From: a phage
Assembly (NCBI GenBank): GCA_013027745.1
Contig: GCA_013027745.1_4329.1
DNA length: 41,168 nt
Reading direction: 5' to 3' (one strand)
Of the stretch, positions 15,831 to 20,014 are shown one piece after another. Within the stretch, counting starts at the first letter, position 1, and every line of letters starts with the position of its first letter. The notes below the pieces were generated by a model that saw only the letters and a list, made by a program, of their open reading frames with translations, was not told the DNA's origin and did not search any database. The translations under genes and the position numbers were made by a program.

Positions 15831-16115
15831 ATGACACACAAATTTAAAGGTACAGACGGTGAATGGGTTAATCGTGGAACGGCTATCTGGGCGGGTGATG
15901 TTTATGTGGCGGAGGTAATGAGTATGCGGGAGAAGGCCTCAGTGAAATTGGCTAACGCAAAACTTATTTCCTCAGCACCTGAATTAATTGAAGCCCTTCG
16001 CCAGCTTCGCGATTACGTTGAGGATGTTTGTGTAGTATCCCCTGAGGATTGTCATAAGGACCACCCATTAAATCTGGCAAACAGAGCAATCGAGAAAGCA
16101 TTAGGAAAGAAATAA
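15831..16115 (+). CDS. hypothetical protein (moron with own promoter and terminator)
   Basis: 94 aa ORF, SD aggagg, opposite orientation to the surrounding head genes. Confidence 0.55.
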   Translation: MTHKFKGTDGEWVNRGTAIWAGDVYVAEVMSMREKASVKLANAKLISSAPELIEALRQLRDYVEDVCVVSPEDCHKDHPLNLANRAIEKALGKK

Positions 16116-16119
16116 AACT

Positions 16120-16140
16120 AAGGCCCCGTAATGGGGCCTT
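16120..16140. terminator. bidirectional rho-independent terminator (conserved cassette copy 2, inverted)
   Basis: aaggcccc-gtaat-ggggcctt followed by tttta. Confidence 0.7.
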
Positions 16141-16143
16141 TTA

Positions 16144-16605
16144 TCATTCGGGCTTAGTGACCTTCGCCGCTTTACTTACGGCCTCTACACCATCGGCATC
16201 GGTGACTTTAACGAAGTATTCACCTGCTGCATTAACCGTCAGAGACAAAGCCTCTTCAGGGGCGTTGACCACTTCCTTACCGTCTTTGTACCAGGTCAGA
16301 GCATACGGCGCTTTACCGGCCTTAACTTCGACAGTGATAGTTGCGTTGCCGTCCGTCAGTTCGGCGTCTTTTGGTTGTACGGAGAAATATACATCGCCTG
16401 CGTCCGCCAGATACGGAATCTCGTAAAGCATACCCGCTGCGGGTAGTGCAATACCGGTTTTATCTGCAAAAGGCATGTCGTCTACTGGTGTACCTAGTAC
16501 ACTTTCGTCCCCAATAGACACCACGTTCTCACCGGAGCCAGACACACGAGCAAACTGGACTACACGACGTGAAGGCACATCAGTTACTTTGAAAAAGCCC
16601 ATCAT
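16144..16605 (-). CDS. Ig-like domain protein (putative virion decoration)
   Basis: C-terminal Ig-like signature YALTWYKDGKEV...GEYFVKVTDADG. Confidence 0.55.
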   Translation of the reverse strand: MMGFFKVTDVPSRRVVQFARVSGSGENVVSIGDESVLGTPVDDMPFADKTGIALPAAGMLYEIPYLADAGDVYFSVQPKDAELTDGNATITVEVKAGKAPYALTWYKDGKEVVNAPEEALSLTVNAAGEYFVKVTDADGVEAVSKAAKVTKPE

Positions 16606-18496
16606 TAACCCCTTTCAGATAATCAGCGACACGTTTATCGAGTTCCGCCATCTGCTTAAGCGTGAGCGGATTCCCGAAACCATCTACAGATATTACGCGA
16701 AACTCTTCCGGCGATATACCGCTGTTGCGGAAAATCTTACCACGAACAGGGCCGAGGGCCTGGTCCTGGAACCATGCAGGTTGTTGTTTCAGGAACTCGT
16801 AATAGGTTGTGTCCGCGCTTACCTGAGTGCCGCCGTCCGCGCCCTTAGCCGCGCGTTTTGCGCCTTTATCTAGGAAATCGAACTCTGAGCTGATTACGGG
16901 TGCGGTTGTGGAGCGACAGTTATGTGCTATAATTCCATTTGCAAGATACCAGTTCTGTTCATTTTCGAGGTTATAAACATGCCCGCAAAAATCAGCTTCA
17001 CTAAAGACCAAATCGACAACATCATCAAGCTCTACGCCGACGGCATCGGACCAGTTGAAATCGGAAAGATTATCGGCGTTTCGTGCAGCCCAGTTATACG
17101 CGTTCTCAGAGAGAACGGCGTTAGGATCCGCGGCGGCAGCGACGCTATGTTTATCAGAATGGCTAAAGCTACTCCTGAGGAGCGCCTCGCTCTCTCCGCC
17201 GCGGCGCATGAAGCTGTCCGAGGGAGAAAGGCCGACCATGCTGAACTGCTTCGCAGAGCCAAAGCCAGGGAGGGAGTCATCAACGCCGGCAGTCACTGGG
17301 AGTTCCTTGTCAATGATTTGCTTATTCAGACCGGACTTGACTTTATTCCAGGAAAGGCGGTCGACAAGTATAATCTCGACTTCGCCGTCGGTTCCGTCGC
17401 CGTGGAAGTCTTCGGGGGAGGTTGGGCTTGTACTGACCGCCGCCGGATTGACCGCTACATTAGCCGCACTAAACAAATCGGAGAACTTGGCTACAACGTT
17501 GTGTTCCTTATGCTTGAGAGAGAGCGCAGAGTCCTTAGCGCACACGAGCTTGTCGCCTATATTGAGAAGGCCGGAAGCAACCCAACCACGGGCAGTCAAT
17601 ACCTGGTGGTTTGGGGTGATAGACAAGGTGCGACCGGACTTTGTAGAGACATAGACTATAGGGCCTTTGTACGTCCGTTTAAAAATGTTAGAAACAGGGC
17701 TACCGGTAGATACTACAGTGTCCCCAAGTAAGCAATTAGGATGGGCCGGAGGCATCGGCCCTTTACCGATTTCCCACGTCATCCCGTCCCTGGCTCTGCA
17801 AATCGTGCTGGTACGGCTGTCCAGCGTTGACACCCACTCGTACTTCTCAATGATATCGTCGTTCTGGCGGTACGTCTCGTTACGGGCTTCGTTGGATACG
17901 TGGGACAGCGCGGTGCGAATTACCGTAGCCGCGTTACGTTCAGAGATGTCCGCCAGCCCACCGGCACCAACAACATTCTTAACAATCTGCCGTGTTGTCT
18001 GGCCTTGTACGAAACCCATCTTAACGCCAGTTACCAGGCGCGCGACCTCCGCTTCGCCCCAGCCAGACATCAGTTTAGTGAAGTCAACAGGCTTGTCGCT
18101 TAACGATAGGGGTTGAAACTCGGCAGCAGACCACACCTGCTCAGCGGTCGGGATAACAAATTCAGCGTTGACGTTAGCCGTGAGTGTTTTCACATTCCAC
18201 TCAGCCTCATACGCTGCCAGTTCCTTAAGGTCTTCGGTCAGCTTTGTTTGCCAGTCTCCGGCTAGCCCTGTCAGTGCTTCTTCTAAGTCGCGTAACAGTT
18301 TATTGAGACGCGCGGTGCTTCTCCCGTCGTCGCCGAACAACAGCACCTGCCGTTTGATTTCATCCCGCATCTCCTGAATGAACGGTGCGAGGTCTTTCAC
18401 TTCGCCAGATGCGTTGCGTTGCAGCCAAATCTGGTGGCTGATTAGTGATGTCAGTAAGCTCATAAATAAACCCTGTGGCGCTAAAGTTAATAGCAT
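16580..18496 (-). CDS. head morphogenesis protein (MuF/SPP1 gp7-like) containing an intein
   Basis: 638 aa ORF between portal and scaffold; conserved AHPN-C site split by a Hint domain; predicted spliced product about 366 aa. Confidence 0.8.
   Translation of the reverse strand: MLLTLAPQGLFMSLLTSLISHQIWLQRNASGEVKDLAPFIQEMRDEIKRQVLLFGDDGRSTARLNKLLRDLEEALTGLAGDWQTKLTEDLKELAAYEAEWNVKTLTANVNAEFVIPTAEQVWSAAEFQPLSLSDKPVDFTKLMSGWGEAEVARLVTGVKMGFVQGQTTRQIVKNVVGAGGLADISERNAATVIRTALSHVSNEARNETYRQNDDIIEKYEWVSTLDSRTSTICRARDGMTWEIGKGPMPPAHPNCLLGDTVVSTGSPVSNIFKRTYKGPIVYVSTKSGRTLSITPNHQVLTARGWVASGLLNIGDKLVCAKDSALSLKHKEHNVVAKFSDLFSAANVAVNPAAVSTSPTSPEDFHGDGTDGEVEIILVDRLSWNKVKSGLNKQIIDKELPVTAGVDDSLPGFGSAKQFSMVGLSPSDSFMRRGGESEALLRSSFSHSDKHSVAAAADPNAVLSENAYNWAARNADNLSDFNWSDAVGVELDDVVDLVFSEADFCGHVYNLENEQNWYLANGIIAHNCRSTTAPVISSEFDFLDKGAKRAAKGADGGTQVSADTTYYEFLKQQPAWFQDQALGPVRGKIFRNSGISPEEFRVISVDGFGNPLTLKQMAELDKRVADYLKGVNDGLFQSN
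16919..17734 (-). mobile_element. intein (Hint domain, 272 aa, residues 255-526 of the host protein)
   Basis: Block A CLLGDTVV, block B GRTLSITPNHQVLT, blocks F/G VYNLENEQNWYLANGIIAHN followed by +1 Cys; no in-frame LAGLIDADG/HNH motif seen in the central region. Confidence 0.8.
16979..17731 (+). CDS. HTH plus PD-(D/E)xK (Vsr/DUF559-like) endonuclease-like protein encoded antisense inside the intein
   Basis: 250 codons from ATG 16979 (GAGGT SD 7 nt upstream) to TAA 17729-17731; HTH IGPVEIGKIIGVSCSPVIRVLRENG; core YNLDFAVGSVAVEVFGGGW...DRRRIDRY...GELGYNVVF. Confidence 0.5.
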   Translation: MPAKISFTKDQIDNIIKLYADGIGPVEIGKIIGVSCSPVIRVLRENGVRIRGGSDAMFIRMAKATPEERLALSAAAHEAVRGRKADHAELLRRAKAREGVINAGSHWEFLVNDLLIQTGLDFIPGKAVDKYNLDFAVGSVAVEVFGGGWACTDRRRIDRYISRTKQIGELGYNVVFLMLERERRVLSAHELVAYIEKAGSNPTTGSQYLVVWGDRQGATGLCRDIDYRAFVRPFKNVRNRATGRYYSVPK

Positions 18497-18532: not shown

Positions 18533-20014
18533 TTATTGCTGAGTGGCGTCCTGCTGTTGCGCCGACTGCGGAATATCGCCAGTTACCTGAGTAACAGCGC
18601 CTAACGGCACAGGTGCGTCCTCAATCGCCGTTGTAATCTCCTCGTCGGTCCAGTCAGTTACCCCGGCCTTACGCAGCGCGGAGTAGTAGGCGGTTGCTGG
18701 CAGTAAACCAGCGTTAATGTCTGCCATCCACTGTGCGCGGTCTTGCGCCGTCATCGGTTGCAGGAAGAACTCCATGTTCAGCTTGAACTCAATTTCCGTG
18801 CCTTCGCGCAAGCCCAGCATAGCAGCCACCCAACGCAACGCCTCTGTGTATGCCATGCTTACGTTACGCGCAATGGTTGCCATTACGGATGTATCAGCGC
18901 CACGTTGCAGGCGGGCTGATTCAGCGGTAATCTGCTGCGTCGGCGTGATAAGCTGCGCACCAATCTGGATGGCCTGATTCTCTTTATCCAGCATGTTCTG
19001 TTTGGCGAGGTTGTTCTCTCCGGCCTGAACCAGAAACGCATTGCCGCCGTAACCGATGTTATGGCCTGAGCGCGACCCCATGCGCACGCCGTGAGGGTTG
19101 GCTTCCGCCCACTGTTCCATGCTCATGTTCTCGCCCGGGGCAATAAACAGAGTCGGCTGGCCTACGACAAAGCTGGATTCCTCATTATCTGCGCTGTTGC
19201 GGAAATGCCCAATATTAAGCTCCGCCAACGGCAGCAAAGGGGCGTCGTCGATAGTAGCGTCGTTGTTGCTTGCGCCAATGAACGTGAACGGGATTTTGCC
19301 GCGTAACTGTTCGCCGAGTTCCGGGAAGATTTCGATTACTTCGTCCTGAGCGCCACCCTCGGCATCGAAGCGGTAAATGCGCTGGCGGTAGCGACCATCA
19401 ATCAGGTCGAGGACACGATATTGCTCACCGAACTTGGTTTCGAACTCTGCACCAGGTTCTGAGTATTCCCATACTTCGCGCAACACTACCATCGTAACGC
19501 GGTTAACAGAACCCACGCGAGTGAGTCGCCAGTTGATGATATTCTCTGCAGTATAGAATGCAATGACCGGGTTTAATAACCCAGCGTTCTGTTCGGCTGC
19601 CGTTGCTGCGGCTGTCTCCGGCGCATCCACCAGCAGCCCACCACGACCTACTGAGTCAATTTCCATAAGCGTATCCTGCGCGTGCTGCCACAGGCCGACA
19701 CCAGAGCCATCTGCATTGCGCAACAGGTACTCCAGTTCAGGCGGAATAATCTGTTCAGGGTCTTTGCGCATCACCGACCCAACCATCCCCGCCAGGGTAC
19801 GTTTGGTGAAGTTGTAGCAGATAGCGCCGTTCTCGTATTCTTCCTGGCGCTGCGCCGCGTAGGTAGGGTCAGGCTCGTTCTTCCCGACATTGCGCAGATA
19901 ACGAATAAGGTCGCCTTCCAGCGCATGACGTACCTTCTGCCATTTATCGAAGTGATGCAGCCATTCCCGGTGTTTTGTCTTAACACCCTGATTCTGACCG
20001 TTCATAGTTAACAT
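18533..20014 (-). CDS. portal protein
   Basis: 493 aa ORF immediately downstream of the terminase large subunit and upstream of the MuF-like gene. Confidence 0.75.
   Translation of the reverse strand: MLTMNGQNQGVKTKHREWLHHFDKWQKVRHALEGDLIRYLRNVGKNEPDPTYAAQRQEEYENGAICYNFTKRTLAGMVGSVMRKDPEQIIPPELEYLLRNADGSGVGLWQHAQDTLMEIDSVGRGGLLVDAPETAAATAAEQNAGLLNPVIAFYTAENIINWRLTRVGSVNRVTMVVLREVWEYSEPGAEFETKFGEQYRVLDLIDGRYRQRIYRFDAEGGAQDEVIEIFPELGEQLRGKIPFTFIGASNNDATIDDAPLLPLAELNIGHFRNSADNEESSFVVGQPTLFIAPGENMSMEQWAEANPHGVRMGSRSGHNIGYGGNAFLVQAGENNLAKQNMLDKENQAIQIGAQLITPTQQITAESARLQRGADTSVMATIARNVSMAYTEALRWVAAMLGLREGTEIEFKLNMEFFLQPMTAQDRAQWMADINAGLLPATAYYSALRKAGVTDWTDEEITTAIEDAPVPLGAVTQVTGDIPQSAQQQDATQQ

Follow-up and report, generated by a model that had tools for sequence, protein, structure and literature searches.

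How can a phage head gene carry a protein-splicing element on one strand while the complementary strand of the same DNA reads, over almost the same length, as an open frame for a second protein? The window that raises this question is the whole stretch of DNA analyzed here, 41,168 nucleotides of a Kagunavirus-like siphophage of the Guernseyvirinae (NCBI GenBank assembly GCA_013027745.1, contig GCA_013027745.1_4329.1). Its minus strand encodes a MuF/SPP1 gp7-like head morphogenesis protein that is interrupted by an intein at 16919..17734. An earlier interpretation made from the letters of the DNA, referred to below as the sequence-only reading, had recognized this intein and overlooked a 269-codon plus-strand open reading frame (ORF), 16922..17731, that is coextensive with it. 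We propose, with a probability of about 0.8, that the locus is a two-strand mobile element in the MuF gene, in which a splicing intein on the minus strand is paired with a Vsr-like homing endonuclease on the plus strand.

The intein comprises 272 codons with class-1 termini (Cys1, His271-Asn272 and a +1 Cys). Its position as residues 255-526 of the 638-aa translation corresponds exactly to window positions 17734 to 16919, and every motif quoted in the sequence-only reading is present: CLLGDTVV, which contains Cys1 at 17734-17732, TPNH in block B, and HVYNLENEQNWYLANGIIAHN followed by Cys. The hidden Markov model search that it had suggested scored above the cut-offs, with 37.3 bits for Pfam Intein_splicing PF14890 (gathering threshold 35.8), 24.7-26.0 for the N-terminal profile TIGR01445 (24.5) and 21.3 for the C-terminal profile TIGR01443 (15.6). 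The MuF gene of the intein-less K1ind1 is without exactly these 272 codons at the HPN|C site, where it reads GPMPPAHPNCRSTTAP; its GPMPPAHPN|CRSTTAP is the same sequence that excision had been claimed to restore. The predicted ligated junction is ...GPMPPAHPN-CRSTTAPVISSEF, within a MuF product of about 355 aa, and it is reasonable to suppose that head assembly depends on splicing.

Conservation across relatives follows the Hint blocks. T40, N42, H43, G50 and W51 of the N-terminal lobe are invariant in the intein-frame alignment, as are G251, H252, V253, Y254, N255, H271 and N272 of the C-terminal lobe. The intein ends ...GIIAHN|C, and its penultimate His, terminal Asn and +1 Cys are kept in the IMG/VR loci. 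The Asp that is usual in block F (VYDL) was not found in the window; nearly the whole family has VYNL, with the Asn at codon 255 (16964-16966), and among loci L010-L089 VYDL occurs only in L063 and L084. This is variation within block F and does not disqualify the element as an intein. Blocks A, B, F and G are thus supported jointly by the profiles, the clean 272-codon gap and the predicted fold. The same intein had in fact been annotated before: in Escherichia phage Snoke (GenBank MK931441), CPT_Snoke_004 is labeled an "intein-containing capsid morphogenesis protein" with PF14890, at the same site and with 96% identical DNA. By itself, the intein is ordinary and previously annotated in a sister phage.

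The predicted structure of the intein frame divides it into three parts. We built an AlphaFold2 model from a 10-sequence alignment, comparable in depth to that used for the endonuclease. The model has a mean pLDDT (predicted score in the local distance difference test) of 49 and is confident only at residues ~1-68 and 233-272, which are beta-rich (pLDDT 57-84). The N-terminal splicing lobe (codons 1-68; 17531..17734, minus strand), with block A CLLGDTVV and block B TPNH, consists of beta strands at pLDDT 57-84, and the C-terminal splicing lobe (codons 233-272; 16919..17038, minus strand), with block F HVYNLE and block G GIIAHN, likewise consists of beta strands, at 64-78. Between them lies a linker (codons 69-232; 17039..17530, minus strand), a stop-free antisense read-through of the endonuclease gene, whose pLDDT of 26-42 stays below 50 throughout. 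The top 50 Foldseek matches of the model in the PDB were intein or Hedgehog HINT domains, the best of them the splicing domains of the GyrA, RecA, RadA and DnaB inteins; their E-values (8e-4 and weaker) are modest because the intein centre is disordered. As a component of the proposed explanation, and held as probable along with it, only the first ~68 and the last ~40 residues would form the HINT splicing domain, with the ~164 residues between them serving as an unstructured linker. Two claims of the sequence-only reading therefore need to be divided. The 272 residues are an intein in the sense of a clean insertion with HINT lobes, but not in the sense of one contiguous intein domain; and the description as a mini-intein suits the protein, in which the splicing lobes are joined by a long linker, but not the genetic element, whose opposite strand is a 250-aa endonuclease gene.

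This homing endonuclease gene (16979..17731, plus strand) begins at an internal Met20 of the plus-strand ORF, encodes 250 aa starting MPAKISFTK and ends in TAA. It is codon-aligned with the intein, such that codon k of the ORF that starts at 16922 faces intein codon 272-k. From Met20 (16979) the frame encodes an N-terminal helical, helix-turn-helix (HTH) DNA-binding region (aa 9-96; 17003..17266, plus strand) and then "YNLDFAVGSVAVEVFGGGW". Profile and fold searches placed a Vsr-like/EDxHD-type nuclease core at aa 106-199 (17294..17575, plus strand; YNLD134...VAVE143VFGGGW-A), and a C-terminal tail (aa 200-250; 17576..17728, plus strand; pLDDT 76-86) overlaps the N-terminal lobe of the intein. 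In a search of 5.8 billion proteins we found eight homologs with 32-50% identity (E 1e-85 to 3e-19), one of which its source calls a "very-short-patch-repair endonuclease". The AlphaFold2 model, made from 9 sequences, reached a mean pLDDT of 82.5, and the fold search identified an HTH region joined to a Vsr-like nuclease. Consistent with this, hmmsearch with a profile of the endonuclease alignment against PDB sequences detected 3r3p_A, the homing endonuclease I-Bth0305I, at E 2.8e-7. All 54 aligned family members share D134, E143, the Trp of the core and R163. Judged by profile and predicted fold, the plus-strand product belongs to the Vsr-like "EDxHD" lineage of homing endonucleases.

The DNA-binding part of the family is variable in length. 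Relatives carry one to four HTH repeats, and with the number of repeats the endonuclease gene product ranges from 250 to more than 400 aa and the intein from 252 to 377 aa (P0005, L005, L027, L057 and others). Each additional repeat leaves the antisense frame open. From these alignments, DNA-binding modules seem to be gained and lost without breaking the intein frame.

The pattern of substitutions indicates which of the two frames is selected. We counted the minimum number of substitutions at each minus-strand codon position among 10 related phages, with L094 (phage jersey) left out. The exteins changed mostly at position 3 (169/97/522 changes at positions 1/2/3), as seen also in the N-extein by itself (138/78/369). 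The same bias holds at the ends of the intein, with 7/2/26 changes in codons 1-20 and 241-272 taken together and 3/1/11 in codons 1-20 alone. In codons 101-232 the counts were 120/25/43; the central excess thus lies at minus-strand position 1, which is position 3 of the plus strand (chi-square, centre versus exteins, p = 2e-31; termini versus centre, p = 1e-8). Of 99 variable codons in this central region, 94 alter the amino acid in the intein frame and 37 do so in the plus frame. The selected frame therefore switches strand within the intein, from the intein frame at the termini to the endonuclease frame at the centre. Codons 21-80 gave a mixed signal, and the tail of the endonuclease (aa 200-250) may represent either true double coding or tolerated read-through. 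The plus frame is under purifying selection. In keeping with this, the motif EDFHGDG in the intein frame is the antisense shadow of the nuclease strand VAVEVFGG.

The double reading is conserved far beyond the window. A tblastn search with the plus-strand protein matched 106 phage records, almost all beneath an annotated MuF or head gene, in phages of Vibrio, Gordonia, Mycobacterium, Klebsiella, Haemophilus/Aggregatibacter, Acinetobacter, Idiomarinaceae, Edwardsiella and Helicobacter. The Gordonia phages Vivi2, Angelicage and Fosterous matched at 35-36% identity, antisense within MuF-like genes; in Vivi2, Aaphi23 and Klebsiella RCIP0054 the match is antisense to a long annotated coding sequence that spans it. 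In IMG/VR we found 286 related loci, and 80 were kept for a count of openness. The antisense frame was open over the whole match in 79 of these 80, always in register 0 and in ORFs of ~290-1,450 codons, with the intein always at the same MuF site (..PP[AFR]H.N | C[L].GD.. and ..HN | C[RK]). Within 63 distinct elements, 14,804 codons contained no opposite-strand stop (summed log10 P = -125). TTA, CTA and TCA make up 1.9% of the extein codons of the same genes and 4-8% in low-GC loci (down to 38% GC), for which about 8-20 opposite-strand stops per element would be expected. For the window itself, openness has P = 2e-4 in the intein frame and 7e-3 in the endonuclease frame. Chance or GC content as the cause of the open antisense frame was ruled out by the lack of stops in the 63 elements together with the P values of the window. 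The only codons that put a stop on the opposite strand in this register are TTA, CTA and TCA; each has synonyms, so codon choice is enough to keep both frames open. From the genetic code, we infer that this accounts for the fixed register.

The single exception among the 80 loci, L016:570-2620 (IMGVR_UViG_3300028214_000030), has both the intein and the endonuclease frames broken. The breaks coincide at ~1231-1285, and a further frameshift lies in the N-extein at ~2132-2160. We regard this locus as wrongly assembled or as a decayed copy whose two genes were disabled by a single indel, and not as a counter-example. Five of the eight endonuclease homologs were examined, and all five were found to be intein-embedded, four from their contigs (P0001, P0005, P0006 and P0008) and one from junction signatures on the antisense strand (P0002). 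The most distant homologs, P0006-P0008, had been candidates for free-standing genes, given the calls of same-strand neighbors; this was rejected for P0006 and P0008, as both contigs encode MuF and the intein. The P0006 contig is open in antisense throughout, and that of P0008 is open over the intein and MuF, its three antisense stops lying past the end of MuF. Two inteins in RtcB (PF01139; P0016 and P0017) share 32% identity with the window intein over 100% of its length and contain the shadow motif …NFHSD…. By this alignment, the family of inteins with an antisense endonuclease may have moved to a second host gene, RtcB.

Comparison of the loci supports the embedding of the start, ribosome-binding site and -10 element of the endonuclease gene in blocks F and G. 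A putative extended -10, TGcTATAAT (16925..16933, plus strand), read from the sequence, is antisense to Ile-Ile-Ala of block G. A Shine-Dalgarno motif GAGG (16967-16970), an 8-nt spacer and the ATG (16979-16981) together occupy 16967..16981 on the plus strand, antisense to His-Val-Tyr-Asn-Leu of block F; the ATG faces the His, and GAGG faces Asn-Leu. The TAA stop (17729..17731, plus strand) is antisense to Leu2 (TTA), the only TTA, CTA or TCA codon in the intein of the window. The endonuclease start faces the block F His in nearly all loci; in 49 of 53 it is placed 20 codons ahead of the terminal Asn. The stop faces one of intein codons 2-14 in each of the 55 mapped loci, and codon 2 itself in 28 of them.

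Codon usage in the 53 loci is biased where these signals would be read. The block F His is encoded by CAT in 42 loci versus CAC in 6, giving ATG and not GTG, even at 65-70% GC. The Asn is AAC in 44 versus AAT in 7, and the Leu is CTC, yielding GAGG, in 34 of 53. The Val and Tyr codons, which face the spacer, vary freely and serve as an internal control. In block G, the codon that supplies the "TA" of the -10 is ATA for 18 of 33 Ile and GTA for 8 of 13 Val (26 of 46 together), enriched over extein usage of 15.6% for ATA and 9.5% for GTA (Fisher's test, 6e-7 and 7e-6, respectively).

The distribution of the intein fits a mobile element. Of 293 phage records with a match to the 3-kb region surrounding the MuF gene, 72 contain it, and most Kagunavirus genomes are without it. 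Inteins are more alike between phages than their own exteins are: identity between the window and L223 is 68% for the N-extein and 80% for the C-extein, versus 90% for the intein. The intein is also mosaic, since L223 and SaI_NFG are 97-98% identical over codons 1-102 and 77-92% beyond, with the opposite pattern between the window and L223. When divergence is measured at the selected frame's free third positions alone, many pairs show values 2-4 times lower in the centre than in the exteins. The pair SaI_NFG and ZS shows the reverse, with 0.42 in the centre versus 0.17 in the exteins; the histories of intein and extein therefore disagree. This pattern fits ongoing homing or recombinational exchange, whichever enzyme drives it.

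Taken together, these results can be explained by the two-strand mobile element proposed above, in which the intein owes its ~164 central residues to translation, uninterrupted by a stop, through the antisense of another gene. The endonuclease would have its own promoter, so that its expression would not depend on the late head operon, and close to the insertion site it would cleave the intein-less MuF alleles that co-infecting phages carry. Recombinational repair would transfer the intein and the endonuclease gene into the cut allele. The intein would then splice out of the MuF precursor, and the phage would stay viable. More tentatively, and at slightly less than even odds for the whole combination, we read the element as tightly co-adapted and bidirectional, not as an accidental insertion of an endonuclease. 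This combination would require that block G doubles as an extended -10, block F as Shine-Dalgarno and ATG, and Leu2 as the stop; that all 250 codons overlap antiparallel and codon-aligned, with real double coding over the N-terminal lobe; and that antisense expression by the host RNA polymerase uncouples the timing of the two genes, that the element, with at least 286 IMG/VR loci, has spread over phages that infect Proteobacteria and Actinobacteria and has reached at least one other host gene, RtcB, and that in the clade of the window the active site has been rebuilt without the His.

Several observations weigh against the proposed element or parts of it. Scans of the plus-strand ORF with Pfam, NCBIfam and PHROGs returned weak HTH matches and did not recognize the nuclease domain. 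The general-base His ("W-H") is kept in 45 of 54 family members, and the window has GGGW-A; its clade (9 of 54) shows W-A or W-S plus a conserved Asp or Glu four residues later. In I-Bth0305I, the substitution H213A was used to inactivate the enzyme (PMC3239194), and nuclease activity in the W-A/W-S clade must, from its sequence, be called uncertain. For the second Asp of EDxHD, the window offers D152 or D157 nearby, most members have "G-xH..R", and the alignment past W-H is uncertain. As for expression, a generic scan for sigma-70 two-hexamer promoters and for terminators detected neither a plus-strand promoter upstream of the endonuclease gene nor a terminator downstream of it; the extended -10 was read by eye and is accompanied by a weak -35, and the codon-bias tests treat related sequences as independent. 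Finally, the high conservation of the intein could derive partly from dual-coding constraint rather than recent transfer. Dual coding was considered as the sole cause of this conservation and accounts for it only partly, given the third-position divergences and the reversed pair.

The change of the His leads to the alternative that the antisense protein is real and selected, but is no longer a double-strand-cutting homing endonuclease in this clade; it would be a nickase, a site-specific DNA-binding protein or regulator, or a rewired nuclease, and the intein would spread only by ordinary phage recombination. The replacement of His by Ala or Ser in the clade of the window, while 45 of 54 members keep W-H, and the inactivation of I-Bth0305I by H213A both speak for it. 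The conserved Asp or Glu four residues on could mark a rewired site, and the plus frame continues to be under purifying selection. However, the sporadic presence of the intein among close relatives is what active homing would produce, inteins that are nearly identical are found within exteins with differences at roughly half of the third codon positions, the inteins are mosaic besides, and D134, E143 and R163 are retained. We consider this alternative unlikely as an account of the locus, although the enzyme of the window may, by its sequence, be rewired, a nickase or repurposed.

Two further alternatives deny the plus-strand protein altogether and are effectively refuted. The one implicit in the sequence-only reading, a plain mini-intein or a decaying intein whose plus-strand ORF is a chance or compositional effect without a product, could draw on the ease with which codon-aligned antisense ORFs arise in GC-rich DNA, on the omission of the ORF by most annotators and on the weak HTH matches in the family libraries. 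It is very improbable in view of a plus frame that folds with high confidence as HTH plus Vsr-like nuclease and matches 3r3p, of central substitutions that track the plus frame, and of openness maintained in 63 elements down to 38% GC, at which 10-20 stops would be expected in each element. The other would make residues 69-232 a functional in-frame domain, such as a novel endonuclease, with the plus reading as its shadow. Although EDFHGDG is conserved in the intein frame across homologs, this motif is exactly the antisense of VAVEVFGG, the intein-frame amino acid is altered in nearly all variable central codons, and the residues score pLDDT 26-42 versus 82.5 on the other strand at the same alignment depth. 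The preprint of Gosselin, Arsenault and Gogarten (2025; bioRxiv 10.1101/2025.01.02.630785) likewise reports no recognizable structure in the in-frame centre, and we give this alternative almost no credence. The proposal that a splicing intein and a Vsr-like homing endonuclease share the two strands remains our preferred explanation.

The host gene was assigned as the sequence-only reading had it, with matches to PF04233 and TIGR01641 above the cut-offs and a match to phrog_241. The ORF list gives a minus-strand frame of 638 aa from its first ATG (16580..18496). The true start is probably Met12 (MSLLTSL), as annotated in relatives; the coding sequence of the precursor would then be 16580..18463 on the minus strand, with 627 aa and the intein as residues 244-515. 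Phage_Mu_F PF04233 matches residues 159-255 (E 2e-11; 45.1 bits, cut-off 29.6), TIGR01641 (phageSPP1_gp7) matches at E 4e-12 (46.4 bits, cut-off 39.65), and both matches stop at residue 255, abutting the intein. The exteins match phrog_241, head morphogenesis, at E 5.5e-148. In the alignment with K1ind1, the N-extein spans 243 codons (17735..18463, minus strand) and ends ...GPMPPAHPN. The C-extein (CRSTTAP...; 16580..16918, minus strand) has 112 codons and a stop and is 8 codons longer than in relatives through a 1-nt deletion. Compared with L010 and Snoke, the window has one A fewer before the MuF stop at 16580-16605 (GGGG-TTAATGATG versus GGGGATTAATGATG), so that MuF runs on for 8 more codons (…KGVNDGLFQSN), into the beginning of a Hoc-like decoration gene; the missing A could be a real polymorphism or a sequencing error.

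A portal-like ORF (18533..20014) lies on the same strand directly upstream of the MuF gene, an order that is the same in annotated relatives. On the other side, a bidirectional terminator-like hairpin at 16120-16140 (AAGGCCCC…GGGGCCTT), with T-runs on both sides, sits between a plus-strand gene (15831..16115) and the minus-strand head module and marks convergent transcription units; a plus-strand transcript of the endonuclease would thus need to start downstream of the hairpin. The closest GenBank match of the window is Escherichia phage vB_EcoS_GZMU_E2010 (94%), and the IMG/VR contig L010 is identical to the window over the N-extein and intein and 99.4% identical in the C-extein. Annotation across this phage group is inconsistent. 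Several GenBank relatives label the MuF-intein gene "NAD+--asparagine ADP-ribosyltransferase", "structural protein" or "hypothetical protein", and the upstream plus-strand gene "DNA polymerase III sliding clamp" or "RusA-like resolvase". Among the annotated records examined, phage PK1 alone lists the antisense ORF, as "hypothetical protein" XRA40086.1 together with a second nested ORF; the Snoke record is without annotation of the antisense gene.

At this locus, about 750 bp are read both ways, as a splicing element and as the nuclease that presumably mobilizes it. This places it among the longest antiparallel overlaps with demonstrable frame-specific selection, and such overlaps are routinely missed by annotation pipelines. 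The E. coli and Salmonella phages of the Kagunavirus/Jerseyvirus group are easily grown, and with natural intein-plus and intein-minus relatives at hand, homing, splicing and antisense expression can be tested directly by crosses. Since the centre of the intein frame is unconstrained, the endonuclease could be mutated without affecting splicing, and vice versa. The embedded signals and the register rule point to a way in which a free-standing endonuclease gene could enter an intein and leave it unsplit, which is relevant to how inteins became associated with endonucleases and how split inteins arose.

Related arrangements have been described, and the locus is best understood by comparison with them. 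I-Bth0305I (Taylor et al. 2011; PMC3239194; PDB 3R3P) is encoded in the sense orientation in a recA group I intron, whereas the gene of the window is antisense in an intein; I-Bth0305I has the general-base His where the protein of the window has Ala, and the last Asp of EDxHD aligns unclearly in the latter. In the fractured genes of Dassa et al. (2009; PMC2677866), found mainly in phages, an endonuclease of the same lineage occupies the same place in the intein, between blocks B and F, and brings its own expression signals, as is proposed for that of the window. There, however, the endonuclease has the same orientation as its host gene, the host is divided into two ORFs and the product is made by trans-splicing; in the window, the endonuclease gene is inverted, its complement is stop-free and the host remains a single uninterrupted ORF of 627 or 638 codons. 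Anti-sense inteins with LAGLIDADG endonucleases (Gorbalenya 1998; Gogarten et al. 2002), in Synechocystis dnaX and a Chloroflexus SpoVR-like gene, likewise carry the endonuclease on the complementary strand, with, as far as the citing preprint (10.1101/2025.01.02.630785) describes them, another nuclease family and other host genes.

The nearest counterpart is given in that preprint, in which Gosselin et al. describe "anti-sense VSR-like HENs" in full inteins of actinobacteriophages. The hosts there include a minor capsid protein (IPR006528, SPP1 gp7/MuF), HHpred provided a link to 3R3P, and the proposed origin is a free-standing endonuclease that invaded an intein. As in the window, the intein is unsplit, an antisense Vsr-like/EDxHD endonuclease lies in its centre and the in-frame centre has no recognizable structure. 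That survey covers the actinobacteriophages of PhagesDB, whereas the window belongs to a clade of E. coli and Salmonella phages (Kagunavirus/Jerseyvirus); set against its description, the ORF of the window spans both lobes, from block F to block A. Text searches of the preprint returned nothing on promoters, ribosome-binding sites, start codons, codon usage, register, metagenomes or enterobacterial phages, nor on a stop at Leu2, a switch in codon-position selection or loss of the His in one clade. The locus is an enterobacterial-phage example of this recently described kind of non-canonical intein, whose description is extended by the anatomy given here.

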